Shown in pieces: positions 14,304 to 33,844 of a DNA stretch of 64,000 nucleotides; the first letter of the stretch is position 1; the number at the start of each line of letters is the position of its first letter. The DNA is from a phage. The notes beneath the pieces are model-generated. The model saw only the letters and a program-made list of their open reading frames with translations, made no database searches and was not told the DNA's origin. A program made the translations under genes and the position numbers. The stretch lies in the sequence record PZ452611.1, one strand, 5' to 3'.

Positions 14304-14610
14304 TACTTGAAAATTCCTGGCATATCAAGTATAAGGGGGATTTCTAAAATGGATTTCCTCCTTTTGATATTTCACCGGGCTGGATATTTTAAAATTCTTA
14401 GAAAATCAGAAAATGGATCGAAAACTAAAATGGATTTTTTCAGCACAGGCGCGGAAAATTGTGCCAATCTATCTAGCCGTTTGCACCATATTCGAGATCA
14501 CCGTTCCAGATTTCCCACACATACACACCTCTCCACCATACCTTTCTCCACTCACTCTTAGTGATTTATGACGGAAAACCCATCGCTATCAGTGAGTTGC
14601 GGTACAATTT

Positions 14611-14795
14611 TTCCAGTACTCGATCTACTTTTCATCTCATGGCTTGGATTTTCTGAAAATTTTTCTCGATAAATTTCTCAGTACTCGATCTGTTTTTCGT
14701 TTTCTGAATCGGATTTTCTGGAAATCGTTCCGGAGCTCGACCTGAAATTTTTGGGGACGAAATCGATTTTTCGTTTTCAGAAATGGATTTTTAAA
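14611..14795. repeat. three imperfect tandem ~60-bp repeats in AT-rich non-coding region
   Basis: cagtactcgatct at 14614 and 14679; ggattttctg recurring; third diverged unit to 14795. Confidence 0.5.
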
Positions 14796-15114: not shown

Positions 15115-15318
15115 GTCCTTTCGATAGGTATATTGTGCCACCTGGCGGGGCCGCTGTCAACACTTTTCAAAAAATTTTTCTAACCTGATGCGCTAACCGC
15201 TGCAACCTGGCGGGGCCAGCCTGGCAGGACCTAACTGACCAGGTAGGAGAGAATGAAGGCTTATAATCTGGTGGGCCTGTGCTATAGGATAGGTAACAAT
15301 TGAAGAGGAGGTACAAAA

Positions 15319-15501
15319 ATGAAAGGTAATATGATCCCCCTGGAAAATGTAGCGATTAATGACGCTGAGGCTATCGCCCTGGTTGAAAAGGCTATGGCGG
15401 GAGCGTTGGAACATAAAGAAGAGTACGAAAAATGGTGGTTAACCTGGCGGGGGCGGCGGCTGGAGAATTCTGCCCAAAAAATAATTTTAACTAATGGTTG
15501 A
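15319..15501 (+). CDS. hypothetical protein
   Basis: perfect RBS GAGGAGG; 60 aa. Confidence 0.45.
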   Translation: MKGNMIPLENVAINDAEAIALVEKAMAGALEHKEEYEKWWLTWRGRRLENSAQKIILTNG

Positions 15502-15580
15502 CAGCTCGGACAGTTCTTGTTATTCTTATCCTCGCAAGGTGAACAACACCACACTAATTAACAGAGAGGATAAAAAAATC

Positions 15581-15778
15581 ATGAACGCCTACGGAATCAA
15601 AGTACGTCGCAGCACTCGCCAGGTGGTCACCGATCAAATGGTTTGCCAGGTGGACGTAACCATCAACAACGGGCAAGGCCTTTATAAATTTCGTCGCGGT
15701 CATAGCTATACCCTGCAACAGCTTAATCGTTGCGCCCTGACAAAAGGTCAGATCAACCACTGGTTTAATAAAAAATAA
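15581..15778 (+). CDS. hypothetical protein
   Basis: ATG after AGAGGATAAAAAAATC; promoter-like TTGACA at 15498. Confidence 0.45.
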   Translation: MNAYGIKVRRSTRQVVTDQMVCQVDVTINNGQGLYKFRRGHSYTLQQLNRCALTKGQINHWFNKK

Positions 15779-15782
15779 GTAT

Positions 15783-15811
15783 TGACATATAGTCCGACAC
15801 CAAATACACTA
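15783..15811 (+). promoter_or_regulatory. sigma70-like promoter
   Basis: TTGACA-17-TACACT. Confidence 0.45.
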
Positions 15812-15842
15812 AAAGCACAAAAGACACTAAGAGGATAAAATC

Positions 15843-16241
15843 ATGAAAACCACTACCTTTAATTTTGATAATGCAGACTTTTCTTTTTCTGATGTCAAGA
15901 ACTGCCGCCGTGATCGTGGATTTTACAAGGCTTATAATCTGGTGGGCCTGGACGATGACAATAATTTGCACGAAGTAGCTGAGATCCGGTATTATGCCGC
16001 CGCCAGTGGGAACACTTACTACTGCGTTTTTTGGATACACGACAACAAGAACAATAAGTACGGCTATACTGGCGGCAAGGCAAGCGGTCACGGTTATGAT
16101 AAAGCTAACGCAGCACTTGAGAGCGCATTAAATGCCATGGGGATCACTGCCGACGGCTGGATCTACGAAGAAGAGTTTTTGTCGGCACTTGCTGACCACC
16201 TAGGCTATAAAAAGCACATTGTAACATGCGCCCACGAATAA
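15843..16241 (+). CDS. hypothetical protein
   Basis: promoter 15783-15811; RBS AAGAGGA; contains 24-nt segment duplicated at 15256-15279. Confidence 0.5.
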   Translation: MKTTTFNFDNADFSFSDVKNCRRDRGFYKAYNLVGLDDDNNLHEVAEIRYYAAASGNTYYCVFWIHDNKNNKYGYTGGKASGHGYDKANAALESALNAMGITADGWIYEEEFLSALADHLGYKKHIVTCAHE

Positions 16242-16323
16242 AAATCATTGACACGCTGCAAAATTTAAGTAAACTAGACACAAAAGGCGGGAATGTTTCC
16301 CGCCAGCACAAAGGAAAAAGATC

Positions 16324-16728
16324 ATGAATAAGAACGTACGCCGCATCATGAACGAGTTGGCAAACGATGAAAAAATTATTGACATGCATTTGATCAACAT
16401 TTGCCGCCGTTGTGTAACATATAACAACCGCGCCGCAAAAGCGCGTGAGATGAACGCAAAAGGCACCTTAAAGCCATTCCAGGTGGTGGTAAAGGCCATT
16501 AAAGATGTAACTAATACGGCAAACCAGGTACAGGGGAACACCAACGAGAGTACCAATATTGATCCGGCTTACATCATGAAACGGATCCGGACCTGCAAGA
16601 ACAAAGAGCAAGTGTATAATGTCATAGACTGGTTGGATTCTATGGGCGATGTGGTTTACAATAGGTTTTCTGCAGCTATCGAGATCCAGCTTGACAGGTT
16701 GGACGGTAAAGTACTAAAAACTTACTAA
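16324..16728 (+). CDS. hypothetical protein
   Basis: TTGACA 16248; 5'-UTR hairpin 16286-16304; RBS AAAGGAAAAAG. Confidence 0.5.
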   Translation: MNKNVRRIMNELANDEKIIDMHLINICRRCVTYNNRAAKAREMNAKGTLKPFQVVVKAIKDVTNTANQVQGNTNESTNIDPAYIMKRIRTCKNKEQVYNVIDWLDSMGDVVYNRFSAAIEIQLDRLDGKVLKTY

Positions 16729-16776
16729 GTTTATTTTTAGATGGCCTTGACTCCAGGGCCATCGATAAAGTAAACT
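16729..16776. repeat. ~48-bp intergenic palindromic element, copy 1
   Basis: tttatttttagatggccttgactccagggccatcgataaagtaaac directly after stop codon. Confidence 0.6.
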
Positions 16777-16808
16777 AATCCCAGTTAAGCGAAAAAGGAG
16801 GCTTGAAG

Positions 16809-16927
16809 ATGAGCACTACACGCCAACACACAAAGGTAACGATTATCGTTTGCATCATTGGTTACATCCTGGCGCAAATGTTGATGGGTAGCGCCAATGA
16901 TTTCGCAAAATTTTTCTTAGACTTTTA
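16809..16927 (+). CDS. small hydrophobic (single-TM) peptide
   Basis: 39-aa ORF after AAAAGGAGG; hydrophobic core VTIIVCIIGYILAQMLMG; below track cutoff. Confidence 0.35.
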
Positions 16928-16928
16928 A

Positions 16929-16956
16929 TTGACAAGCTAACTTAAATCAGTATAAT
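16929..16956 (+). promoter_or_regulatory. sigma70 consensus promoter
   Basis: TTGACA-16-TATAAT. Confidence 0.6.
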
Positions 16957-17008
16957 ACTAAGCACATAAACGGGAAAACTTCCCAGAACACCAAAAGGAG
17001 AAAACATT

Positions 17009-17359
17009 ATGAATACTTCCATCACTATGACCGCCGAAGAAAAAGCCCTGCAGATCGCCGCTCTGAAAAAACAGATTGCAGAACTTGAAGACAAGATCGA
17101 CAATTTTGAAATCGACGAAGACAAATACGACGATAAATATGATGAATGGTTGGACGAGATCTACGGCGAAATTATGATCGGAAACATTTCTTTTCTTCCG
17201 TCGCGTATCCTCAAGGAGCTAGATCCTATCGCTTACCGCTGCGGATTTAGCGACTACATCGACAGCCTGGATATTGAGGACGATGAAGAATACCAGGAAT
17301 TACAGACAGAGCTTGAAGAAGTGAAAGAAGAGCTTGCAGAACTGGAAGAAAACGAGTAA
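17009..17359 (+). CDS. acidic coiled-coil protein
   Basis: consensus promoter 16929-16956; RBS AAAAGGAGAAAACATT; very acidic D/E-rich sequence. Confidence 0.5.
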   Translation: MNTSITMTAEEKALQIAALKKQIAELEDKIDNFEIDEDKYDDKYDEWLDEIYGEIMIGNISFLPSRILKELDPIAYRCGFSDYIDSLDIEDDEEYQELQTELEEVKEELAELEENE

Positions 17360-17408
17360 ATTTATTTTTAGATGGCCTTGACTTCAGGGCCATCAATAAA
17401 GTAAACTT
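17359..17408. repeat. intergenic palindromic element, copy 2
   Basis: aatttatttttagatggccttgacttcagggccatcaataaagtaaac after stop codon. Confidence 0.6.
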
Positions 17409-17448
17409 TAGACTGTTAACACTTAACCAATACAGAGGAGTTAAAACC

Positions 17449-17694
17449 ATGGCCGCACTAATTACCAAATATTATGCCCCTACCAACACCAAAAGCGCCC
17501 GTATCATGGTAAAAGGCTTCGGACGTAAAAAGGTGTACACCTGGGATTATTCCCTAGACATGGAAGACAACTACACCAACGCGATGACAGATTTTATTAA
17601 TGAGCTGAACACGCGGATCTTGACAAATTATAAAATTACCGATATTGCCTATATAGGGGAAGGCGGGATCTGTTTTGTCGGTATCGTCAAATAA
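17449..17694 (+). CDS. hypothetical protein
   Basis: RBS AGAGGAG; 81 aa. Confidence 0.45.
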   Translation: MAALITKYYAPTNTKSARIMVKGFGRKKVYTWDYSLDMEDNYTNAMTDFINELNTRILTNYKITDIAYIGEGGICFVGIVK

Positions 17695-17770
17695 ACTGTT
17701 TTTTCGGTGGTCCTGGTAGCAGGGCCATCTATAAAGATAGTTTATCAGCACAATGAAAGGAGAAAGTAAC

Positions 17771-18124
17771 ATGATCAGCGGGGCAAGTTTTATTATTGGC
17801 GCTATTGCTACGGCTTTAATTGTAAACAAGATCCAATCCAAAAACGAAAAAGAGAGCAACGCGCTTACAGAATACCCATTTTGGGTATTCAACGACAATG
17901 AAGACTACATTATCAAGTACAAGGATGAGAAAGGGGACCAGGTAACACCGAGACCGATCCCAGCTTACAAGATGCAAGAAACATTATACCGCTTAAAGGC
18001 TGGCGGCGCAAAAATCGTAGACTTTTGGGGATATGATTGCAAGGATCAGGAGACTATAAAACGTCGTATCCGGGCGATTCAGGCAAATATTGAGATCAGT
18101 AAAGGGGGCGTTTATGAAAATTAA
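17771..18124 (+). CDS. membrane-anchored hypothetical protein
   Basis: ATG 17771 after AAAGGAGAAAG; N-terminal TM helix. Confidence 0.45.
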   Translation: MISGASFIIGAIATALIVNKIQSKNEKESNALTEYPFWVFNDNEDYIIKYKDEKGDQVTPRPIPAYKMQETLYRLKAGGAKIVDFWGYDCKDQETIKRRIRAIQANIEISKGGVYEN

Positions 18125-18311
18125 TTTCGAAAAAATTGTAAAGCGCCCCCACGATTCCGAAGAGCTGCCGGAACGCCGCCAGCGTAACAATAAACTGAAT
18201 AAACCGAAAAGGTTCGGGAAGATCTGGAGAAATCACTATGATCGCAAATTACCGGGCCTGCTTTTGGAACGTGAACGACAGGCGGAACGATACCGCCACA
18301 AAGACAAATAG
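18114..18311 (+). CDS. small basic protein
   Basis: ATG after AAAGGGGG; Arg/Lys-rich; followed by terminator. Confidence 0.35.
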   Translation: MKINFEKIVKRPHDSEELPERRQRNNKLNKPKRFGKIWRNHYDRKLPGLLLERERQAERYRHKDK

Positions 18312-18319
18312 CAACCAAC

Positions 18320-18348
18320 GCCCCGCCATTGTGCGGGGCTTTTTATTT
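18320..18348 (+). terminator. rho-independent terminator
   Basis: GCCCCGC-cattgt-GCGGGGC followed by TTTTTATTT. Confidence 0.6.
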
Positions 18349-18492
18349 CTATCCCGCCGATAGCGCCCCTGGTTGGCCCTACAAGCGCCATAAAGGCCCC
18401 TACCTATGCAATCCCCTTTCTTAACCTGAAAACAGCGTCTAGGGCCGTTTTATGGCGTTAAAAATATTATTGACAGTAATTCTATTTAAAGC

Positions 18493-18521
18493 TTGACACC
18501 TTGGGATAGTCCGGATATACT
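18493..18521 (+). promoter_or_regulatory. sigma70-like promoter (second TTGACA at 18470)
   Basis: TTGACA-17-TATACT. Confidence 0.5.
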
Positions 18522-18556
18522 AACCACATCAAAGCAAGAAGGAAGGAGTAAACGCC

Positions 18557-18817
18557 ATGCGTAAATTAAAAAATTTTGATAAAGTAGATGTTGTCCTGAA
18601 TAATTTTTACTACTGCAATAATAAAGCCGTTTGGTGGCGTGATAGTTCCACCGATAAAGTTAAAGCGCGCTTTCTCCAAGGGCACTGGCAAGGCCGCCCA
18701 GTGATTAAAATCTCGGGGCAATTGGTAGCGTTTAAAAATTGCCGCCGTGTTGATGACGTTGAAGAGATTCTAAACATTTTACGCCACAATAATTTAAAAA
18801 ATAGTGTTGACAAGTAA
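18557..18817 (+). CDS. hypothetical protein
   Basis: promoter 18493-18521; RBS AAGGAAGGAG. Confidence 0.5.
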   Translation: MRKLKNFDKVDVVLNNFYYCNNKAVWWRDSSTDKVKARFLQGHWQGRPVIKISGQLVAFKNCRRVDDVEEILNILRHNNLKNSVDK

Positions 18818-18834
18818 GTCTCAATAAGTATACT
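18807..18834 (+). promoter_or_regulatory. sigma70-like promoter
   Basis: TTGACA-16-TATACT. Confidence 0.5.
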
Positions 18835-18891
18835 TAAACACACAGGCGGGAAAACTTCCCGCCACTAACAAAGAAAATAGGAGAAAATATC

Positions 18892-19515
18892 ATGACCACC
18901 GTTAACATTACCACAGGTTACAATTTAGCTTTCGACGTGCTGACCGACGAACAAAAAGAAAAAGCCGTTGAAATGGTCCGAGAAAGAGAAGAACACAGCG
19001 GGGATAACTTTTTTGCAGAAAGTGTAATTGAAGACTATAAAGAATATGTCTTTCCAGAGTATGGCCTTGAAGATACCAAGGTACATTGGTCCGGCTTTTG
19101 GTGCCAGGGTGACGGCGCGTCAATCAGTGCGGAAAACGTGGATTTAGAAAAATTCTTGCGTAAAGTAAAGGCCCTGACCAAGTTCCGATCAATTCGTCAC
19201 TTGTTCGGCACAATGCACGATGGCGAGCTATCCGCAAGTGTTGAGCGTGATCCATATAGCCGCTATAGTCACGAAAACACTGTAAGCGGGTACATCGATA
19301 CTACATGGCTAGACCTGACCGCCAAACAAGAAAATAAAGTGGAAGATCTGGAAGAGCTGATCACCGAGACGGTACGGGAGCTATCCCGCAAGGTTTACGT
19401 AGACCTGGAGGAGGCCTATCTAGAACAGTTCACTACCGAAAACCTGATCGGCCTTATTGAGGCCAATGATTGGCGGTTTGATGTGGATGAATATGGAGAG
19501 ATGAGTTTTTCATAA
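18892..19515 (+). CDS. hypothetical protein
   Basis: promoter 18807-18834; 5'-UTR hairpin; RBS; 207 aa acidic. Confidence 0.5.
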   Translation: MTTVNITTGYNLAFDVLTDEQKEKAVEMVREREEHSGDNFFAESVIEDYKEYVFPEYGLEDTKVHWSGFWCQGDGASISAENVDLEKFLRKVKALTKFRSIRHLFGTMHDGELSASVERDPYSRYSHENTVSGYIDTTWLDLTAKQENKVEDLEELITETVRELSRKVYVDLEEAYLEQFTTENLIGLIEANDWRFDVDEYGEMSFS

Positions 19516-19523
19516 ATAAAGTG

Positions 19524-19552
19524 TTGCAATAATCTAAAAACCTGCTATATTA
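19524..19552 (+). promoter_or_regulatory. sigma70-like promoter
   Basis: TTGCAA-16-TATATT. Confidence 0.45.
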
Positions 19553-19604
19553 AAACTCAAGGGGCAAGACGTTTGCCCCCACACAAAACAAAGAGGAAAA
19601 CATC

Positions 19605-19985
19605 ATGAAAAACACTACCAAAGCTATTTACACCGTTATGTTTAACCTGGTTACCTTTCGCGAGGATATGAAAGATCTTCCGCGTGAAACAGTGTGCGAC
19701 CATATCGAAAACTATCGCAAACTAATCAAAGAGTTGCCTTTAAAACGTGATCAGTATGCGGCTAACGCCATGCTTAATGCCATGATCAAAAAGATGATCC
19801 AGTGTGATTTAATTCTAGCCTATGATTATGCGGGTGGTCGTTTTGCAGTATACAATCAGCCCGTGCCCGGTATGGGCACCATCGAAGAATTGCACGCGCT
19901 CAATCTAAAACAAGATGTGTGGGATAGTATGCCCCGCGTGGTGGTGTGGGCAGAAAGCGGGAAGATTTACGGCGATAGTTTTTAA
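19605..19985 (+). CDS. hypothetical protein
   Basis: promoter 19524-19552; hairpin; RBS AAAGAGGAAAACATC. Confidence 0.5.
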   Translation: MKNTTKAIYTVMFNLVTFREDMKDLPRETVCDHIENYRKLIKELPLKRDQYAANAMLNAMIKKMIQCDLILAYDYAGGRFAVYNQPVPGMGTIEELHALNLKQDVWDSMPRVVVWAESGKIYGDSF

Positions 19986-20049
19986 TCAGGTAACAGGCGG
20001 CATATTTGCCGCCTTATTGTTAAACAAAACTGCAAAAGAGGTACATAGA

Positions 20050-20421
20050 ATGGAATTTATTATTTTGGCTGTATTGGTTGCCTTGTTTAACGCCTGGATC
20101 GCTGGCAAGATGGGCAGATCCGCCTTTTTATGGTTTATTATATCTATTTTCCTGGGGGTGGTTGCAACTATTGTATTGGTTATCCTTGCAATTGTTGACA
20201 AGGGGAATAATAGAAAGGGTAAAGTATTTTCAGACCTGTACGACGCTCAAACGTTTGTCAACGCCTATTATAGTGATCTTCCAGTCTCCCTACGCTGCAG
20301 CTTGGCACAACAGGTTTTTGATGAGGCTAAAACCAGAGATCAAGCCCATGAGATATGTTTAACTGAGGCGGATCGCCTATTTGAGAGGAATAGAAAATAT
20401 GTGGGCCAACCGTTTAAATAA
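20050..20421 (+). CDS. hypothetical membrane protein (2 predicted TM helices)
   Basis: ATG after AAAAGAGG; hydrophobic segments. Confidence 0.45.
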   Translation: MEFIILAVLVALFNAWIAGKMGRSAFLWFIISIFLGVVATIVLVILAIVDKGNNRKGKVFSDLYDAQTFVNAYYSDLPVSLRCSLAQQVFDEAKTRDQAHEICLTEADRLFERNRKYVGQPFK

Positions 20422-20531
20422 TGCCACGTTAATTAATCCCTTTAGTGAAGATTTGAAGCCAGCCGCCTGGCGTGACGGATTCAATAACGAACGCTTTATT
20501 TTCAGGCCTGATCTTGAGGAATTTTATAACA

Positions 20532-20657
20532 ATGGATCGAACAACAGCGGAGATAATTTTTCTTGTGGTGTGTGTCGTGATAGGACTCCTGGGGGCCATT
20601 GTAGATCGCGTCACTACTACCAGAAGGAAAGGGGGAGACGATGACAACCAAGGATAA
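20532..20657 (+). CDS. small single-TM peptide
   Basis: 41-aa ORF; competing overlapping frame from 20399 exists. Confidence 0.25.
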   Translation: MDRTTAEIIFLVVCVVIGLLGAIVDRVTTTRRKGGDDDNQG

Positions 20658-20760
20658 GCCATGCACCGATAAGGTGCGCCGCGTTATGGTATGGCTTGAG
20701 ATTATCGCCCTTGAAATATTGCTAGGCGTAGGGATGTACTTTATCGCTGTAAGTAACTAA
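20641..20760 (+). CDS. small single-TM peptide
   Basis: 39-aa ORF after AAAGGGGGAGACG; followed by terminator. Confidence 0.3.
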   Translation: MTTKDKPCTDKVRRVMVWLEIIALEILLGVGMYFIAVSN

Positions 20761-20764
20761 GAAC

Positions 20765-20792
20765 GGCCCCCGATCATGGGGGCCTATCTTTT
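20765..20792. terminator. rho-independent terminator (possibly bidirectional)
   Basis: GGCCCCC-gatcat-GGGGGCC then TATCTTTT; A-run follows. Confidence 0.55.
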
Positions 20793-20816
20793 AAAAAAAA
20801 ATTTTCTTCCGGGGTG

Positions 20817-20845
20817 TTGCAATCCGGTCCGGAATGTGGATAATA
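20817..20845 (+). promoter_or_regulatory. sigma70-like promoter
   Basis: TTGCAA-17-ATAATA. Confidence 0.4.
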
Positions 20846-20900
20846 ACAATCAACGGGGAGCTAATCCCCACCACCACAAAAACCAGAAAGGAGAAACAAA

Positions 20901-21101
20901 ATGAGCAACAATATCCGCGTTATTAACTTCAAAAAAGAAGAAAAAATTGCCGTGCTGATTGACGGTCAAGAAATCTTCAAGGGCGACTATGAAGATCATC
21001 AAACGGCGATTAGTATCACTCGCGTGATTGGTTACCATAATTTCTACCCCCAAGGCGCTGAGGCAGCAGTTAAACGAATCAAAGAGATTGTAGGCCTGTA
21101 A
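20901..21101 (+). CDS. hypothetical protein
   Basis: promoter-like 20817-20845; hairpin; RBS AAAGGAG. Confidence 0.5.
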   Translation: MSNNIRVINFKKEEKIAVLIDGQEIFKGDYEDHQTAISITRVIGYHNFYPQGAEAAVKRIKEIVGL

Positions 21102-21150
21102 AATTTATTTTTAGATGGCCTTGACTTCAGGGCCATCAATAAAGTAAATT
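21100..21150. repeat. intergenic palindromic element, copy 3
   Basis: identical core to copy 2; after stop codon. Confidence 0.6.
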
Positions 21151-21192
21151 TAAACCCTGTTAAAATAATCAGTGCAAAAAGGAGTAATGATC

Positions 21193-21492
21193 ATGTTTAT
21201 ACCCGCCAATAATCTTTATTTCTTTGATGGTCAGATCGTAGACGGTGTGGAAGTGGAGATCACTGGGTGCCCTGGTGGTCAGGCTATGACTTTTCGGAAT
21301 AATGCCTTTGATGATTCTCGTATCGTTATGAGAATGGAAGTTACAAAGCTGGACGACAAGAAAACGCTCATTGACTATTCCGTGAAAGATCATCCAGACT
21401 ACCACATGATCTATGGTGATTTGTGTATTGTTGACCGTGACAAGGTGGGCGGCATTGTGATCGCTATTGTGAACGATGTTTTCTCTGAATAA
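21193..21492 (+). CDS. hypothetical protein
   Basis: ATG 8 nt after AAAAGGAG. Confidence 0.45.
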   Translation: MFIPANNLYFFDGQIVDGVEVEITGCPGGQAMTFRNNAFDDSRIVMRMEVTKLDDKKTLIDYSVKDHPDYHMIYGDLCIVDRDKVGGIVIAIVNDVFSE

Positions 21493-21631
21493 TTCCGGCA
21501 AATGATGCAAAATAAGGCCCCTAGCAGGGCCTGCAGCGATATAATCACATAAAGGCTATGCGGTTGCATGGCCTTTATTATTTTAGCGTTACAGCGTCCC
21601 CAAGGCGCTTAAAAAATTTTTAAAGAAGTAC

Positions 21632-21660
21632 TTGCATCAAGTCCTACAATATGGATAATA
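21632..21660 (+). promoter_or_regulatory. sigma70-like promoter
   Basis: TTGCAT-17-ATAATA. Confidence 0.4.
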
Positions 21661-21716
21661 GGACGTGTCAGGGGGGCGGCCCCCAATCATTAACCGGATA
21701 GATAGGAGTTAAAATC

Positions 21717-22001
21717 ATGGCTATTGTCACCGTTGGCGATGTAGTGGAAATGGAAGCAAAATACTTAAAAGCGGGTATGCATATCCTACGGAATGATCAA
21801 GAATTGTTATTAACGATGGTAGACTATAATCCCGGCCAGGATTATCCAAGCATCGACATACTTTTTGAGTATGTTGATGAAGAATTGAAAGAGGATGAGG
21901 CTTATCAGGGTGAATTCTGCAATTTCTTTTGCCCTGATGAGGTTGTAAAAGTTATCTATCAACCTGGCGTACCTTTCCCGCTGCACGCTATCAATAAATA
22001 A
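21717..22001 (+). CDS. hypothetical protein
   Basis: promoter 21632-21660; hairpin GGGGGCGGCCCCC; RBS ATAGGAG. Confidence 0.5.
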   Translation: MAIVTVGDVVEMEAKYLKAGMHILRNDQELLLTMVDYNPGQDYPSIDILFEYVDEELKEDEAYQGEFCNFFCPDEVVKVIYQPGVPFPLHAINK

Positions 22002-22055
22002 ACCTGGCGGGGCCGAAAAGGCCCCAATTATGAAAATAAAGAGAGGTAAATCATC

Positions 22056-22289
22056 ATGATGGAACAAATTAAACGCGCTGAGGCTATTAATGGCAATGTG
22101 ATCTATTTTGTCAGCAAAAACGAAAAAGGCGTACCATATGCGGCGGTAATAGTACAACCTGACGGCGATTATTGGTTTACTGTATACGGATCTTATTCTT
22201 TCGGGCGTCCGGTTCATGATAGAATTTTGAAAGTAGCGAATCCGACCGGGAAAAATATCACAGCAGAAAAATTTTTTGAAAATAGTTGA
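22056..22289 (+). CDS. hypothetical protein
   Basis: hairpin; RBS AAAGAGAGG. Confidence 0.45.
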   Translation: MMEQIKRAEAINGNVIYFVSKNEKGVPYAAVIVQPDGDYWFTVYGSYSFGRPVHDRILKVANPTGKNITAEKFFENS

Positions 22290-22314
22290 CATGACCATAT
22301 AAGACTGTAATATA
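22286..22314 (+). promoter_or_regulatory. sigma70-like promoter
   Basis: TTGACA-16-TAATAT. Confidence 0.5.
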
Positions 22315-22365
22315 TAAATCAAAGGGGGGCAACAAGCCCCACCAACCACAAAGAGGATAAAAATC

Positions 22366-22545
22366 ATGGCTATTATTGCAAAGACTGAGATCGTAGGCTT
22401 AGATTCTATTCTCCTCGCATATGAGGAAGCTATAGAAATGTATGTGGTTTCCTATGGTGAATATATCCGTGAATATAAATCTATTGATCTGGCTTTTGAA
22501 TGTTATATTCGCCAGGTTAATAAAGCGTACGATGATTATCGTTAA
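22366..22545 (+). CDS. hypothetical protein
   Basis: promoter 22286-22314; hairpin; RBS AAAGAGGA; 59 aa. Confidence 0.4.
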   Translation: MAIIAKTEIVGLDSILLAYEEAIEMYVVSYGEYIREYKSIDLAFECYIRQVNKAYDDYR

Positions 22546-22635
22546 AATAGCTTGACAACAAACAACCATCTAACAAAGCATAATACATAAGGCGGTGGAA
22601 TGGTCCGCCACCTGGAACAAGAAGAGGAAAACAAG

Positions 22636-22740
22636 ATGAAACAGAAATTAATTGATGCGGTGATCCTGGTTATTGCCCTGGGTATTGGCCTGATTGCAAC
22701 CATGTCTAATATGATCTTGTCTTCCAACGGTATCGGGTGA
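22636..22740 (+). CDS. small single-TM peptide
   Basis: 34-aa ORF after hairpin and AAGAAGAGGAAAACAAG. Confidence 0.3.
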   Translation: MKQKLIDAVILVIALGIGLIATMSNMILSSNGIG

Positions 22741-22749
22741 GGTTGGCAA

Positions 22750-22965
22750 ATGATCACTAACAAAACAGGCAAAACAGAATTTTTACGCAACTTACAGATC
22801 GGCAAGCCTGAGATCTGGTATTGCACTAAAACACCACGTGACGAAATGAAAGACTTCACCGCCACGCTGCAACGGGTAAAGATATCCATCACGCAGAAAA
22901 AGGCCTTATTAGTGGTGGAAGGTGAGATCCCCCAAACCGTTGTTATAGTTGAGCGTACAGCATAG
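22750..22965 (+). CDS. hypothetical protein
   Basis: ATG after GAGG; 71 aa. Confidence 0.4.
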   Translation: MITNKTGKTEFLRNLQIGKPEIWYCTKTPRDEMKDFTATLQRVKISITQKKALLVVEGEIPQTVVIVERTA

Positions 22966-23056
22966 TTTAATTTATACCGATACCCGAAAATTAACCAACA
23001 AAGCATAAACAGGCGGTTACCGCCGCCTTAAACGTAGCAGAAAGAGGATAGACACA

Positions 23057-23341
23057 ATGAAAAAGATGATCGCAGTGGTTGCCCTGGTTGTTGGACTTAA
23101 TGCGCCTGTAATGGCTAAAGAGCTGGCAAAAGAGGTTAATCTAACGGATATTCATGCCGTCAATCAAATCGGGGTTACTTATCGCTTATGCCTTGCCGCT
23201 AAAACTTTTAATGACGGTACAACAGAGTACTACGGATTCGAGGGTATCCGGTGCGGTGAGCTTGCTCGCGACCTTAAGGAAGATTCAGACCTGGAGGATC
23301 TGCCCATAACCGTGAACGGGAAAACTTACGTGAACCGTTAA
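23057..23341 (+). CDS. secreted/periplasmic small protein
   Basis: Sec-type signal peptide MKKMIAVVALVVGLNAPVMA; RBS AAAGAGGA. Confidence 0.5.
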   Translation: MKKMIAVVALVVGLNAPVMAKELAKEVNLTDIHAVNQIGVTYRLCLAAKTFNDGTTEYYGFEGIRCGELARDLKEDSDLEDLPITVNGKTYVNR

Positions 23342-23343
23342 CC

Positions 23344-23478
23344 ATGAAAAAGATAATCATCACCTTGGGGATTGTGGTGGCAATATTGGCGCTCTTCCCC
23401 CTTATGGTTAGGTATGTGCTGATCAGTGTTATTCTAGTGGTCAGCGATCTGGTGTTATATATTAACTCATTGTTTTAG
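23344..23478 (+). CDS. small membrane protein
   Basis: 44-aa hydrophobic ORF right after upstream stop. Confidence 0.3.
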   Translation: MKKIIITLGIVVAILALFPLMVRYVLISVILVVSDLVLYINSLF

Positions 23479-23486
23479 GTGCGATA

Positions 23487-23678
23487 ATGACCACTGATGA
23501 AGCTGTAAAAGTGTTGGCGGTATTGAGATATCATAATCAAACAAAGGTTATAAACGATCCTGATTATGTTGACTCAAAGCGTGAAGATGAGACATTGACC
23601 GCAATATGGATTATTCAAGAATTGCTAAAGCGCATGACAGAGAAAAACCGACCGGACTACATAGGCGAAAAAATATAA
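23487..23678 (+). CDS. hypothetical protein
   Basis: 63 aa; followed by terminator-like hairpin. Confidence 0.4.
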   Translation: MTTDEAVKVLAVLRYHNQTKVINDPDYVDSKREDETLTAIWIIQELLKRMTEKNRPDYIGEKI

Positions 23679-23738
23679 TATTTATAAACTACAAAACAGG
23701 GCTTGCAATGGTCCTGTTTTTTGTTATACTTATTCCAC

Positions 23739-23786
23739 GGCAGGCACCTGGCGACGGGGGGAGACAATCACCGGGGGGTGCCTGTC
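23739..23786. repeat. GC-rich element, inverted copy with internal 8-bp stem
   Basis: ggcaggcacctggcgacggggggagacaatcaccggggggtgcctgtc. Confidence 0.55.
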
Positions 23787-23807
23787 ATATAAGAACTATA
23801 AAAACCG

Positions 23808-23836
23808 TTGACATCTGCCAGGGGGTGGGGTAACAT
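23808..23836 (+). promoter_or_regulatory. sigma70-like promoter
   Basis: TTGACA-17-TAACAT. Confidence 0.45.
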
Positions 23837-23890
23837 TTATCTTGAAGGGGCAAAAGTGCCCACACAACAACCAGAAGAGAGGAAAACATT

Positions 23891-24163
23891 ATGTCAAGCT
23901 GGATTAATCAAGAAGTCGAATCACGTTTTAATGCTATTTGGGATCTCATCGAAAAAGAGGACGGAACATCAAGCCCTTACCTCAATAATCTTGAATTCCA
24001 TTTTGTGGAAGCGATGAACGCAGAACATGATCACGAAGGTGGTGCGGACGAGTTCGCTAAAAGGTATGGCTTCAACAATGCCAACGAAATGATCGAGGCG
24101 GTTGTACTCCAGGCTGAGGAAGATTATCAATTAAAAACGCTTGAATTCTGCCGCCGCAAGTAA
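23891..24163 (+). CDS. hypothetical protein
   Basis: promoter 23808-23836; hairpin; RBS GAGAGGAAAACATT. Confidence 0.5.
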   Translation: MSSWINQEVESRFNAIWDLIEKEDGTSSPYLNNLEFHFVEAMNAEHDHEGGADEFAKRYGFNNANEMIEAVVLQAEEDYQLKTLEFCRRK

Positions 24164-24223
24164 TAAGATAATGACACGGGCCAAAAGGCCCACTAATCAG
24201 AACCACACAAAGAGAGAAAGAAA

Positions 24224-24442
24224 ATGACAACCCGTAAAATTAAAGTTGTTTGCATTGAATCTACTGGGGGCGCTTTTGTAGTTGGTCAGGAATATAATGC
24301 GGTTTTAATGGGTACGGATTGGAAGGTTAAAGGCCTTAATGGTTACGAGTACGGCACTACTTGCGGCTTGCGTGGTCGAATCGGATACGTGAGTTTAGAC
24401 AATAAAGAAAAATTTGTTTTCGACACCCTTGTGAGTAAATAG
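24224..24442 (+). CDS. hypothetical protein
   Basis: hairpin GGGCCAAAAGGCCC; RBS. Confidence 0.45.
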   Translation: MTTRKIKVVCIESTGGAFVVGQEYNAVLMGTDWKVKGLNGYEYGTTCGLRGRIGYVSLDNKEKFVFDTLVSK

Positions 24443-24519
24443 CATGAATTGCTAAAGACTGATCTGCGAACTGCTGTATTATCAACTAATCAAAACGAAC
24501 CACATAAAGAGGAAACATC

Positions 24520-24783
24520 ATGAAACGTCTGGATCAGCTTAAATTAGTTCAGTACATGGCCTACAGAATTCTTGAAGTCCAAAAAGGTAGCAAAAAAGAG
24601 GTTTGCGAGAAAGCTTATAAGATCTTTACCCGCAAAAAAGATGACTGGATGCTACGCCAGACCAAAAAGGCTGACATCTTGGGGTACCTGGAAGAAGAGA
24701 TCCGACTTGAAGAGCAAGAAGAGATCCGCCGCAGTGAGGCAGATTATCAGGCAGCTTGGGAAAACTGGATGAGTAACAAATAA
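24520..24783 (+). CDS. hypothetical protein
   Basis: RBS AAAGAGGAAACATC. Confidence 0.45.
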   Translation: MKRLDQLKLVQYMAYRILEVQKGSKKEVCEKAYKIFTRKKDDWMLRQTKKADILGYLEEEIRLEEQEEIRRSEADYQAAWENWMSNK

Positions 24784-24851
24784 TACAACAAGTTGCACGA
24801 TCAGGGGGGCAATAAAGCCCCTTGATCACATAAAAATTATGCTATCCTTGG

Positions 24852-24880
24852 TTGACAAGGATCGGCAGTTTTGCTATATT
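24852..24880 (+). promoter_or_regulatory. sigma70-like promoter
   Basis: TTGACA-17-TATATT. Confidence 0.55.
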
Positions 24881-24929
24881 CTTTTTTGAAGGGAAGTTGT
24901 AAGAAAATTAACTAAGAGGTAAAAACACC

Positions 24930-25349
24930 ATGAACATTAAATCTAATAATCCGGCATATAGCTTTGATAACGCTTTTTGTCACGGTCCGGCGGCGAAAGG
25001 ATTCGAAATCGATGGTAAACTAATTATTGTCAATGTTGACGGGGAAGAGGTTGCAGTATATCCGGTGGCAGACGTTAAAAGCCGTTTGCAATGCCGCATG
25101 GATGTTACCGCCTACCAGCTTGATCCGGTCCGCATAGTTGCCCTGGTCCTGGAGGAAGAGATCAAAGCCATGCATCATAGCAATAAGTTTATCGGTGACG
25201 CGCAAGATAATATGAAGGTATGCCGCTATAAAGTTAATGAAGTGCTTAAAGAATACGGCTTCAAAGATCTGATGATCAAGCGTGATGAAAAATTCCGTTA
25301 TCGTAACGACCTGGCAAATCGAATCTATGAAATATACGAATCATTATAA
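24930..25349 (+). CDS. hypothetical protein
   Basis: promoter 24852-24880; RBS AAGAGG; last plus-strand gene, followed by terminator. Confidence 0.5.
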   Translation: MNIKSNNPAYSFDNAFCHGPAAKGFEIDGKLIIVNVDGEEVAVYPVADVKSRLQCRMDVTAYQLDPVRIVALVLEEEIKAMHHSNKFIGDAQDNMKVCRYKVNEVLKEYGFKDLMIKRDEKFRYRNDLANRIYEIYESL

Positions 25350-25367
25350 TTTCTTAACTAAACTATC

Positions 25368-25395
25368 AGGGGCTTTAAAAGGCCCCTTTCTTTTG
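25368..25395 (+). terminator. rho-independent terminator ending plus-strand arm
   Basis: AGGGGC-tttaaaag-GCCCCT then TTCTTTTG. Confidence 0.55.
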
Positions 25396-26347
25396 TCTGT
25401 ATTTCTCCTACCACAAACGGCCCAGCCTGGCAAGTGGAATAATTGACTAGCCAGCAATTACCAACACTGTACAAATATACATATAAAATAACTATTGCAT
25501 AATCTTTCATCTTGTGGTAGCAGGGCCATTTTTACACGTTTTCCTTCCAAAATTGCACGTAATGCAGCTATTGCATAAAATTTAACCTGATGCACATCTT
25601 CAATAGCTTGTCAACAACTAAAAATCTTTATAAGTCATACACTTACATAACCACAAAAGCGTGTTCTACGTGAAAAATCGAGTATAACTATAGCCGCCAG
25701 ATCTCAGAATTTACGTACGCTCACCATTCTATAGTCTGCTAAGTATTTATTCCAACCATAGAATAACAGAATAGTCAATACCTGCATAAAATAATTATTC
25801 GTGTAAACTGCATAACATAAATCAGCCGGGGTGTCAACATTTTTCGTAAACGGCTCGAAATTATCACTGTGAGCTATCATAAACAGAGAAATCTTTAGTC
25901 GTCTAATGTTTACTGTACGTTACTATACTAACTGGAATCATTAGATGACTAATAAAAAGATAAGAAATCATTAACAATGCAATTGTTTTATTCATAACAA
26001 TAAGGCAACTATGCAAACGAATGGCATGGCGCGACGGAGTCGCGACATAATATAAAAGCAGTAACCATCACCCCCGTGATAGTTTGTCTGCAAACTATTA
26101 ATCAGATCATAGTTGCCTTGTATTTAGTTAATCATGACATAAACTCAGGCATAGCCTTCGTCTCGAGGATGTTAACAAGCAAGGCAACTATAGATCTTCT
26201 AATAGTTGCCCTGCTTTTATATTATGTCATAGAAACACCCGAAGGGGTGACCAAAGGTCACCTGGCATAGCCAGTGAAATATTGTAAACAAGTTAATTAT
26301 TATCATGCAAACGAATGGCATGGCTTATCATCTCTGTGTAAATAGTT

Positions 26348-26511
26348 TGTTTGTAAACAGTTTATACGTGAACAGTTAGCTGTGTAAACTATCAGGCATG
26401 TAAGCTATTGAGCATGTAAACAGTAAAGGTCGTGAACAGTAAGCGAGCGAATAGTAATGGCGTGAACAATGACAGCGTAAACAGTCAGGCATGTCAATTA
26501 TGTTCAGTGTG
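26348..26511. repeat. tandem array of 11 units, 15-16 bp period, consensus n6-GTRAACAGT (iteron-like)
   Basis: 9-mers start at 26348, 26363, 26378, 26394, 26410, 26426, 26442, 26457, 26472, 26487, 26503. Confidence 0.7.
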
Positions 26512-27953
26512 TCACCATTATGTCATATTGTGTCAGACAAGTTTTTCTCCTCTTTGTCAAGTGCTGCATGAAAAATTTACAATCTGGTATGGTAGCATTT
26601 TTGCGGCCCTGTTTACATTCAGTACTGTATGTATAAGCCTTGTTGTGTGGGCGCTTAGACGTCTAGACGGTTGGAAGTCTGCAGGTCAATATCTAATCTA
26701 TTGGTTGCTAACTATATCCCACACAAATAGTAAGAAATGCAATTGTTATATGCGTAAACTGTAACTCATGTTATCAATCCCTGTATGGATCGCCAGTGGT
26801 GCGCATAATAGGTATTATGTTAAATTGCCAGTAATGATAACTATTCTCACAGTGATAGGTATTCTCATTCAACCCCACAAGATAGGTTGCAAATGTTGTG
26901 CCACTGTGTGAACGGCCTCGCCTATTAATTTGCCTCACTGCCTCGATATTTGAGAATTATTATAAGAATGAGAAGTATTCCCATTTCGTCCGCCTGGCAG
27001 CACTCCTGTAGGTCAGGTCAAAATCGGGAGAGAACTGGACCTGTTCAGATATTTCTGGCTGGCTCTTCAGGTCTGTGTGGGAAAAGCCGACCCCTCCGGC
27101 GGCGGGGAGGGGGTCAATTAAAAAATTTACGGGGCATATGAAGCGCTCTTCAGGTAAGGCATGTATTATGGGATGAAACCCTCTTCAGGAAATGATATTT
27201 GTGGGTGTGATATTTGCTGGAAAGCTAGATATGACTGGACTCCTGGCGGGGCAGGGGTAGTACAGACAGGGGAAATATGGGGGATGTAGTTGGGTAAATT
27301 GATCAGGCAGGTAGAGTATGGAATATGTTACGAGTATGTTAAATATGGAGGGTGAATATCTGCAGGATTTGTGTGTAAAATCAAAGACTTAAGTGGTGTT
27401 GTGGTATTTTCTATAAATAATTCAAGTTTAATAGGTGATATTTGTCCCTATCCACTTTGTGTGGTAAACAGATTCAGATGAGATTGGTTTACGAGTGTAT
27501 ACATAATATACAAATTAAAGATACAAGAAACCCCCCTCCCCCTTCGGCTACCATTCACCTTTTCCTCTGACTGGTACTTAAACACTTATTCAGACTCTTC
27601 AGGTTATCACCCATATATCATATGGCAGTGACTGGTGTCCTCCGGCCCCTCTTTCGTCACCCGTCCGCTTCGCCATGCTAATGCCATAGCCAATGGTTCG
27701 GTTGTTCACCCTGTTCACTCAGGTGTATCTCCATACCCCTTCAAACCGAAGAGAACAGAAAACCCGAATTACTCGGTAAAAGAAAAGAGAAGAACTTAAT
27801 TTTATCAGGATAAGCAAGAATGTCAAGGCATGACTGCTCACTAAACAAGCAAACAGTCATGTGTGGGAGGTAAGTGATTGTGGTGGTAGGAAATTTAGTT
27901 GAAAGATGTGTTATAGGTGCTCCCAGCACTTTAGCCGGGTAGCTAATTGTGTG

Positions 27954-33815: not shown

Positions 33816-33844
33816 ATGATACTAAATCTGAAGCGTTGTGTCAA
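33816..33844 (-). promoter_or_regulatory. sigma70-like promoter upstream of hpf-like gene
   Basis: minus strand TTGACA-17-TATCAT, then hairpin AAAGAGGG...CCCTCTTT and RBS. Confidence 0.5.

Follow-up and report, generated by a model that had tools for sequence, protein, structure and literature searches.

The 64,000-nucleotide (nt) stretch of phage DNA analysed here (sequence record PZ452611.1; hereafter the window) contains an island of small plus-strand genes, many of which are preceded by a composite leader consisting of a sigma70 promoter, a GC-rich hairpin and a strong Shine-Dalgarno (SD) sequence. The segment at 15253-25349 matches Escherichia phage V5/rV5 (DQ832317/NC_011041, 106618-116717 on the reverse strand) at 99.9% identity; this phage is Vequintavirus V5 of the Vequintavirinae and had not been recognised in an earlier inspection of the letters without database searches (the sequence-only reading). 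About 220 further phage records match the island, mainly from Vequintavirus and with 90-95% identity. In rV5, the island is spanned by open reading frames (ORFs) 197-164, each of which is deposited in GenBank as 'hypothetical', with only six or seven sigma70 promoters annotated within the region. The rV5 genome paper lists 33 promoters and 20 terminators genome-wide and leaves leader hairpins unmentioned (PMC3606486).

The gene set was established by placing the deposited coding sequences (CDSs) on the window and re-choosing their starts by ribosome sites. This yielded 29 plus-strand genes, g1 to g29, in line with the approximately 28 small genes of 34-207 amino acids (aa) proposed from the sequence alone:

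15189-25390 (+): island of 29 small genes (34-207 aa) corresponding to rV5 ORFs 197-164; five intrinsic terminators divide it into transcription blocks

Six of these genes are translationally coupled, with no intergenic sequence in front of them, while each of the other 23 follows an intergenic region of 54-245 nt. A strong SD of the AAAGAGGA or AAGGAG type lies 5-9 nt ahead of the ATG in about 26 of the 29. The starts corrected with respect to the annotation include 15581 instead of 15494 (g2) and 22636 instead of 22600. In DQ832317, the corresponding ORF196 (15494-15778) and ORF173 (22600-22740) have starts placed too far upstream and extend over the promoter or hairpin of the gene itself, which are probable annotation errors; the same probably applies to ORFs 178 and 177, which form a single 99-aa gene in the window sequence (21193-21492), and to ORFs 187, 180 and 168, which appear spurious.

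Promoter matches with at least 10 of the 12 consensus bases numbered 10 on the plus strand of the island and 0 on the minus strand, compared with 1.9 +/- 1.5 (maximum 6) in 200 dinucleotide shuffles, and 15 of the 29 genes have an upstream match of at least 9/12 bases. Promoter density alone is not specific to the island, as 30-40 kb of the window also has 10 matches on its own sense strand. We also scanned for the complete arrangement, defined strictly as a promoter, a GC hairpin 6-16 nt after the -10 box, and an SD with ATG 15-40 nt further. This strict scan returned six modules in the island and none in each of 100 dinucleotide shuffles, and none was found on the plus strand of the 64-kb window outside the island. 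With relaxed thresholds, the full module was present in 10/29 genes, corresponding to 10 of the 23 intergenic regions:

16248-16326 (+): g4 module; TTGACA-16-TAAACT at 16248-16275, hairpin GGCGGGAATGTTTCCCGCC at 16286-16304, then AGCACAAAGGAAAAAGATC-ATG; leader fold -14.6 kcal/mol, z score -4.3
16929-17011 (+): g6 module; consensus TTGACA-16-TATAAT at 16929-16956, weak hairpin GGGAAAACTTCCC at 16972-16984 (the weakest, z -2.0), then AAAAGGAGAAAACATT-ATG
18807-18894 (+): g11 module; TTGACA-16-TATACT at 18807-18834, hairpin GGCGGGAAAACTTCCCGCC at 18845-18863, strong SD, ATG at 18892; z -5.6
19524-19607 (+): g12 module; TTGCAA-16-TATATT at 19524-19551, hairpin GGGGCAAGACGTTTGCCCC at 19561-19579, then CACACAAAACAAAGAGGAAAACATC-ATG
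20817-20903 (+): g16 module; TTGCAA-16-GATAAT at 20817-20844, hairpin GGGGAGCTAATCCCC at 20855-20869, CA-rich leader, SD, ATG at 20901
21632-21719 (+): g18 module; weak promoter TTGCAT-16-GATAAT (8/12) at 21632-21659, hairpin GGGGGCGGCCCCC at 21672-21684, SD, ATG at 21717
22286-22368 (+): g20 module; TTGACA-16-TAATAT at 22286-22313, hairpin GGGGCAACAAGCCCC at 22326-22340, then ACCAACCACAAAGAGGATAAAAATC-ATG; z -5.7
22552-22638 (+): g21 module; TTGACA with a poor -10 box, hairpin AGGCGGTGGAATGGTCCGCCACCT at 22590-22613, then AGAAGAGGAAAACAAG-ATG
23808-23893 (+): g26 module; TTGACA-17-TAACAT at 23808-23836, hairpin GGGCAAAAGTGCCC at 23848-23861, CA-rich leader, SD, ATG at 23891
24141-24226 (+): g27 module; weak TTGAAT-17-TAAGAT (8/12) at 24141-24169, hairpin GGGCCAAAAGGCCC at 24178-24191, leader ACTAATCAGAACCACACAAAGAG; z -3.7

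Typically, the stop codon of the upstream gene lies in an A/T-rich stretch, and the SD and start codon close the element at its 3' end (examples are TAAAAATCATTGACA, TAAAATAGCTTGACA and TTTATTTTTAGATGG).

In total, 17 of the 23 intergenic regions contain a GC hairpin. In 10 of them it lies behind the -10 box, in four it surrounds the -35 box, and in three (g13, g19 and g23) it comes with an RBS (ribosome-binding site) but without a recognisable promoter; five genes have no leader hairpin. The four sites around the -35 box (16727, 17358, 17693 and 21101) belong to a 51-nt repeat, D1, with the consensus TTTATTTTTA-GATGGCC[TTGACTYCA]GGGCCATC-RATAAAG-TAAACT, in which the -35 box lies within the hairpin loop. 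These seven leaders are as follows:

16727-16777 (+): D1 repeat copy 1, before g5; TTTATTTTTA, hairpin GATGGCC[TTGACTCCA]GGGCCATC with the -35 box in its loop, -10 box TAAACT
17358-17408 (+): D1 repeat copy 2, before g7
17693-17743 (+): degenerate D1 copy, before g8; -35 box lost, hairpin kept
21101-21151 (+): D1 repeat copy 4, before g17; shares 98% identity with copy 2
19995-20014 (+): hairpin AGGCGGCATATTTGCCGCCT followed by TATTGTT, terminator-like, ahead of g13
22002-22058 (+): g19 leader; hairpin GGGGCCGAAAAGGCCCC at 22009-22025 directly behind the g18 stop, with SD and without promoter; z -3.9
23011-23059 (+): g23 leader; hairpin AGGCGGTTACCGCCGCCT at 23011-23028 and a strong SD, promoter not recognisable

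The sequence-only reading had stated that most genes carry the three-part module. Its elements are real and far above chance: the four hairpins that it quoted are present (16286-16304, 19561-19579, 23013-23028 and 24178-24191), as is its RBS site AAAGAGGAAAACATC (19590-19604), and its description of individually promoted small ORFans with strong SDs is supported. However, the full module is found in only 10/29 genes, and 'most genes' holds only if different hairpin classes are lumped, since true intrinsic terminators and the hairpins embracing a -35 box had been pooled with those of the 5' untranslated region.

The remaining promoters and the terminators of the island are the following:

15498-15526 (+): g2 promoter TTGACA-17-TATTCT, placed ahead of the true g2 start (15581 versus the annotated 15494)
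15782-15810 (+): g3 promoter TTGACA-17-TACACT, without hairpin
18493-18521 (+): g10 promoter TTGACA-17-TATACT, without leader hairpin
24852-24880 (+): g29 promoter TTGACA-17-TATATT with extended -10 box; a hairpin at 24799-24827 lies upstream of the promoter
18320-18339 (+): intrinsic terminator, GCCCCGCCATTGTGCGGGGC followed by TTTTTATTT
20765-20784 (+): intrinsic terminator
21549-21578 (+): intrinsic terminator, 13-bp stem followed by TATTATTTT
23693-23720 (+): intrinsic terminator
25368-25387 (+): intrinsic terminator at the island end

In the g2 leader (15527-15580), unlike in the others, the sequence UAUCCUC at the 5' end is predicted to base-pair with GAGGAUA, the SD (-10.7 kcal/mol, z -3.8), which would thereby be sequestered. 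Outside the island, a promoter, 5' hairpin and RBS (TTGACA-17-TATCAT, AAGAGGGTTTGGTTCCCTCTT) precede a minus-strand gene at 33816-33844 (-), and the module design is thus not strictly confined to the island.

With regard to geometry, the hairpin of the rV5 modules starts 9-12 nt after the -10 box (standard deviation 1.05 nt), while the distance between hairpin and ATG is looser (standard deviation 3.6 nt). Compared with uniform placement within the leader, such positioning has P<1e-4, both in rV5 and in 23 modules of the Stephanstirmvirinae described below. With the usual start of transcription 6-8 nt behind the -10 box, the predicted position of the stem is 2-5 nt from the transcript 5' end. 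The leaders are predicted to fold as one 5' hairpin of -9 to -15 kcal/mol, with z scores of -3 to -5.7 for eight of them, and everything downstream of it, SD included, is predicted to be unpaired; the spacer is CA-rich and G-poor (e.g., ACCACCACAAAAACC). The 8 nt behind the hairpins that lie downstream of a promoter hold 0-3 T, mostly 0-1, and thus no U-tract, which is present at the five canonical terminators elsewhere in the island.

Two other assignments were rejected: that of plus-strand intrinsic terminators for the hairpins downstream of promoters, because no U-tract lies behind them, and that of RNase III sites for the hairpins in general, because the stems measure only 5-9 bp. An Rfam scan of 14-28 kb gave only a sub-threshold chance match to RF03091 (31.5 bits versus a gathering score of 94.4).

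A terminator scan flagged at least five of the hairpins on the minus strand only (16304-16286, 18863-18845, 19580-19560, 22340-22326 and 23028-23011), where T-rich runs lie behind them. On this basis, the hairpins might act on the opposite strand and stop antisense transcription coming from the convergent block to the right. We find this scarcely plausible. The flags arise because the initial transcribed region is A-rich, the T-richness being its mere complement; there is no minus-strand promoter of at least 10/12 inside the island; and the placement of the hairpins follows the plus-strand promoter within 1 nt. Moreover, the terminator at 25368-25387 and 2.6 kb of non-coding sequence already separate the convergent blocks.

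Equivalent regions of Justusliebigvirus (phages alia and EmilieFrey) and Phapecoctavirus (phiWec179), both of the Stephanstirmvirinae, are filled with a more stereotyped form of the module, TTGACA-16-TAAGAT-GTATCACATAG-[hairpin]-CACAAC-AGAAGAGAGA-N-ATG, and most of their 23 modules place the start of the hairpin exactly 10 nt behind the -10 box. Over 12 sequences, 104 module instances were collected, 100 of them on the gene-sense strand, with 39 unique hairpins and 29 distinct stems. In 28 of these 29 stems the G-rich arm comes first and the C-rich arm second, as in the promoter-early stem-loops (PeSLs) of the T4-type phage RB49, and no C-first hairpins were found. Matches to a consensus module number 828, spread over 194 phage records; among the phAPEC8-like phages listed, most have 7-11 per genome. 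We found no transcriptomics or hairpin description in the literature for rV5-like, phi92-like or phAPEC8-like phages.

A common position and a G-then-C polarity in more than 100 leaders of two phage subfamilies would also suit a binding site for a phage or host protein, either a translational or transcriptional repressor or an endoribonuclease, that silences all early cassettes at once as T4 RegA/RegB would. Furthermore, rV5 has an Srd-like protein and no T4-type late transcription factors (PMC3606486), which would leave room for such an early shut-off. However, 29 distinct stems and variable loops would leave such a binder no shared sequence, and family searches with the island products yielded nothing resembling RegA or RegB; we regard a common protein switch of this kind as highly improbable.

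Another element shared with the Stephanstirmvirinae is non-coding, about 60 nt long (ACGGCAGGCACCTGG...GGGGAGACAATCACCGG...TGCCTGTC) and located at 23738-23790, between the terminator at 23693-23720 and the promoter at 23808, with a promoter-like site at 23703-23730. It is conserved in the Justusliebigvirus and Phapecoctavirus loci, where its AATCACC core is invariant. As RNA, it folds with a predicted -25.7 kcal/mol (z -2.8), and may represent either a small RNA or a site of protein binding.

Column conservation was compared among nine Vequintavirus genomes. The most conserved intergenic positions were those of the -35 box (2% variable columns), the -10 box (7%) and the SD (9%), compared with about 26% in other intergenic sequence; promoter and SD columns are thus, as judged from the alignments, under purifying selection. 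Within the hairpins, 21% of the stem columns varied versus 53% of the loop columns (p=2.6e-5), the loops diverging about 2.5 times faster. The hairpin is kept at the same place in every orthologue, including those with whole-loop swaps and re-made stems. In particular, the entire loop is replaced and the stem kept in g23 of Mangalyan, the stem of the ECP26 g12 orthologue is re-made with equal energy, the g16 orthologues show differing stem-and-loop solutions, and the g18 hairpin is kept in 9/9 genomes with G-C to G-U changes. Structure-anchored counts were used rather than a covariance model, since a MAFFT alignment of 32 paralogous leaders failed to register stems of unequal length. A search of IMG/VR for g11 relatives returned only two close loci, too few for covariation.

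The sequence-only reading had suggested that the hairpins stabilise mRNA 5' ends, and their location, anchored to the promoter with the rest of the leader open, fits a 5'-terminal stem-loop on the predicted 5' ends. In such a mechanism, host RNA polymerase would fire the island promoters immediately after infection, and transcripts starting about 7 nt after the -10 box would carry the hairpin 2-5 nt from their 5' end. There, it may hinder RppH and the 5'-end-dependent entry of RNase E, as the ompA and T7 phi10 stem-loops do, and the open CA-rich spacer and strong SD would then yield high translation. Hairpins inside a promoter, without a promoter or in read-through transcripts might serve as an intercistronic barrier or insulator. 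On positional evidence only, we tentatively favour stabilisation against RppH/RNase E as the most likely role of the hairpin.

Several observations weigh against this assignment. The four hairpins embracing a -35 box and the three promoter-less ones cannot be 5'-terminal on their own transcript, and the fact that 12/13 promoter-proximal hairpins of RB49 lie inside the promoter implies that 5'-end protection is not a universal function of PeSL hairpins. In the conservation analysis, the difference between stems (21% variable) and other intergenic columns (26%) was not significant (p=0.19). RNAalifold, applied to the g18 and g12 orthologues, found no pair changed on both sides but only G-C to G-U changes; internal G.T and A.C mismatches numbered 7 versus 5, which does not favour sense RNA over DNA or the antisense strand. 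In addition, we found no transcript 5'-end data for this phage group, and the 'early' timing derives only from promoter type and one T7 gp1.1 homologue. Finally, in RB49, a stem-loop without U-tract cut downstream lacZ expression as strongly as the rrnB T1 terminator (PMC2839356).

This last result speaks for the original view of PeSLs, according to which the hairpins would be transcriptional attenuators or insulators that damp read-through from the many co-oriented promoters upstream, so that each cassette mainly uses its own promoter. Hairpins without a promoter (g13, g19, g23) or around the -35 box in D1, right behind the upstream stop, are consistent with such a function, as is the degenerate D1 copy at 17693, which retained its hairpin after loss of the -35 box; the GenBank record ASO2A labels the element 'terminator'. 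Nevertheless, the hairpins downstream of promoters have no U-tract (0-3 T in the next 8 nt), while five canonical terminators are present in the island where termination is evidently wanted, and an attenuator would not need placement to within 1 nt of a fixed distance from the -10 box. The sole reporter experiment comes from another phage and could also be explained by a change in mRNA or translation. Overall, we judge attenuation unlikely as the role of the rV5 hairpins. The fixed position of about 10 nt in rV5 and in the phi92/phAPEC8 version would provide a clean natural test between a stabiliser and an attenuator.

As the sequence-only reading had proposed, island content was compared among related phages, in our case pairwise between rV5 and eight relatives. 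This revealed single-gene insertions, deletions and exchanges at module repeats, and with them a role of the modules as breakpoints that had escaped the earlier inspection. Gene content is variable, and the cassette-sized differences have their junctions inside module repeats. ECP26 is devoid of g5 and g6 by a clean crossover within D1, the left half deriving from the copy at 16727 and the right half from that at 17358. Five relatives have an extra 246-nt gene (a 291-nt cassette) at a 32-nt repeat of RBS, ATG and first codons (22620-22651). Similarly, g27 is missing in 6/8 relatives, with a junction overlap of 17-36 nt between the similar leaders at 24192-24227 and 24485-24520. The extra cassettes of Mangalyan carry their own promoter, hairpin and RBS, with differing stems.

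Similarity of single island genes also extends across subfamilies. Three segments closely match Stephanstirmvirinae phages and are flanked by non-homologous leaders: g19 (22053-22282) is 92% identical to EmilieFrey, g20 (22354-22547) is 94% identical to alia, and g27 with its downstream spacer (24206-24523) is 93% identical to phiWec179. Single ORFs with 92-94% identity across subfamilies would imply recent gene flow among phages used in cocktails. Because the leaders resemble one another, the phage recombination machinery could use them as portable homology, by which single ORFs would be cut out, brought in or traded without damage to their expression signals. Given the mapped breakpoints, we consider it very probable that the leaders serve in this way for the gain, loss and exchange of single ORFs; they would mark insertion and removal sites for accessory genes in therapeutic rV5-like phages.

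The indel breakpoints and the D1-D1 deletion inside repeats are also what would be expected if the hairpins had no RNA function at all and were DNA repeats homogenised by recombination or gene conversion, the palindrome being a recombination hot spot or cruciform. Along the same lines, the linker GTATCACATAG is conserved among paralogous Stephanstirmvirinae modules, whose fixed spacing could reflect common descent; wobble pairs give no strand signal and formal covariation is absent; the G-first, C-second polarity is identical on both DNA strands; and the PeSL authors speculated on a protein recognising GGGG...CCCC. In rV5, however, the linkers between -10 box and hairpin vary in sequence while their length stays at 9-12 nt, and simple copying is hard to reconcile with 29 different stems at a single position. 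The loops diverge at 2.5 times the rate of the stems, and the crossovers that were mapped fall within the RBS/leader or the D1 loop rather than specifically in stems. A purely DNA-level origin is, in our judgement, decidedly unlikely. It is likewise quite doubtful that the leader represents a dedicated cassette exchange system of Vequintavirinae and Stephanstirmvirinae, two coliphage subfamilies that are otherwise unrelated, with the hairpin recognised by a putative phage protein (a recombination helper or global early-mRNA regulator); if it did, the island might resemble an integron that lacks an integrase and whose cassettes share one post-transcriptional switch, an equally doubtful proposition.

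Other repeats were observed in and around the island. The motif ACCTGGCGGGGCC has five copies versus 0.5 expected, at 15140, 15205, 15442 and 22002 and, as a variant, at 27241; its copies bound deletions at 15153-15200 (JLBYU08) and 15263-15440 (LL12). An exact 24-nt repeat, AAGGCTTATAATCTGGTGGGCCTG, is found at 15256-15279, in the intergenic region before g1, and at 15927-15950, inside the g3 CDS, and may be a remnant of an earlier recombination event. Immediately before the island, 14606-14791 contains three tandem-like copies of a 47-60-nt unit with 65-74 nt spacing. On the other side, about 2.6 kb without convincing genes (25390-27950) lie between the island and the convergent minus-strand block and are rich in the short repeats GTAAACAGT, GTGAACAGT, GCAACTAT and CATGTAAGCTAT. 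This segment corresponds to the 'non-coding' box of the rV5 paper (PMC3606486) and could be an origin or packaging region.

Concerning the encoded proteins, all 29 products match PHROG families of unknown function. Pfam names only one of them, g9 (18114-18311, rV5 ORF189), as a member of the T7 gp1.1 family (PF08200, E 2.6e-11), itself of unknown function, and searches of NCBIfam and of PDB sequences gave no matches for the island products. The annotation of rV5 ORFs 167, 205, 206 and 209 notes a similarity to RB49 proteins. The protein types described by the sequence-only reading were identified as g5, g15, g21 and g24 (single transmembrane segment), g23 (signal peptide), g6, g11 and g18 (acidic) and g2, g9 and g10 (basic). 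The structure check that it had suggested was run on g11, whose model reached a predicted local distance difference test (pLDDT) score of 87.8 and had no fold match. Its proposal of a host-takeover or anti-defence role is unsupported, because 28/29 proteins have no assignable function and Pfam, PHROGs, NCBIfam, PDB and the g11 fold search were uninformative for them.

Taking these results together, we consider that the island is, on balance, probably the hyperplastic early-gene region of rV5, built of ORFan cassettes most of which have a PeSL-type composite leader. PeSL cassettes have been described in the T4-type phages RB49/phi1, PST/T4 and nt-1/KVP40 (Arbiol 2010, PMC2839356; Comeau 2014, PMC4122927). 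In RB49/phi1, they combine strong sigma70 promoters, GGGG...CCCC stem-loops and SDs and flank ORFans in hyperplastic regions; five positional subclasses are distinguished, and indels are mediated by PeSLs, which also give rise to mini-circles (PMC2839356, PMC4122927). The sequence-only reading had missed this match (PMC2839356). The leaders of rV5 would have the same order, with an A/T-rich stretch after the upstream stop, a sigma70 promoter, a G-run/C-run (GGGG...CCCC) stem-loop, a CA-rich, G-poor open spacer, a strong SD and the ATG. As in the T4-type phages, the modules cluster among the ORFans of a hyperplastic region, the elements bound the indels that distinguish close relatives (eight compared), and one of the five PeSL subclasses also has its stem-loop downstream of the -10 box.

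Several differences were nonetheless apparent. rV5 and its neighbours (Vequintavirinae and Stephanstirmvirinae) are unrelated to T4, whereas PeSLs have so far been described in Straboviridae, and nucleotide similarity between the rV5 and RB49 elements is limited to the consensus parts. In the RB49 region as we read it, the promoter itself contains 12/13 promoter-proximal hairpins, with a single one downstream of the -10 box, while in rV5 10/14 promoter-associated hairpins lie about 10 nt downstream of it and are thus predicted to be transcribed; rV5 and its neighbours would therefore mainly use the 'downstream' subclass that is rare in RB49. Mini-circles and terminator activity are features of T4-type PeSLs, whereas the rV5 modules are known from sequence alone. 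We found no paper describing PeSL-type elements outside T4-type phages, and the rV5 modules are best read as PeSL-type cassettes outside the T4 group, with a fixed and predicted-transcribed hairpin position. If so, such cassettes would not be a peculiarity of T4-like phages but a general device by which large virulent coliphages carry, express and trade accessory early genes.

At the level of the transcript, the closest parallels are the stem-loop stabilisers in the 5' untranslated regions of ompA and papA (Emory, Bouvet and Belasco 1992, as cited in PMC3997798). As in these, the rV5 hairpin lies within a few nt of the predicted 5' end and is followed by an unstructured spacer and a strong SD. 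A stabiliser of this type would be expected to start no further than about 4-5 unpaired nt from the 5' end, and the predicted distance in rV5 is 2-5 nt. The T7 phi10 leader is laid out in the same way, with GGGAGACCACAACGGTTTCCC ahead of a strong SD. In contrast to ompA and T7 phi10, the 5' ends of rV5 are predicted rather than mapped, its promoters are of the host sigma70 type and not those of T7, and the element is repeated before many genes, including in promoter-less form.

The design of the island also resembles the host-takeover module of Bacillus phage SPO1, which has 24 small genes with strong early promoters and SDs. Both are dense arrays of small, individually promoted ORFans with near-consensus host promoters and strong ribosome-binding sites, and an SPO1-like design is mentioned in PMC2839356. 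However, SPO1 belongs to another host and phage lineage, no 5' hairpin rule is known to have been described for it, and its host shut-off has been shown experimentally, whereas the rV5 island genes are known from their sequence. Finally, as with lambdoid morons and integron cassettes, single genes of the island move with their own expression signals into permissive intergenic sites. Morons differ in having no conserved flanking linker, the regulatory leader itself being the homology in rV5, and integrons differ in using attC and an integrase, where a dedicated recombinase is not evident in rV5.

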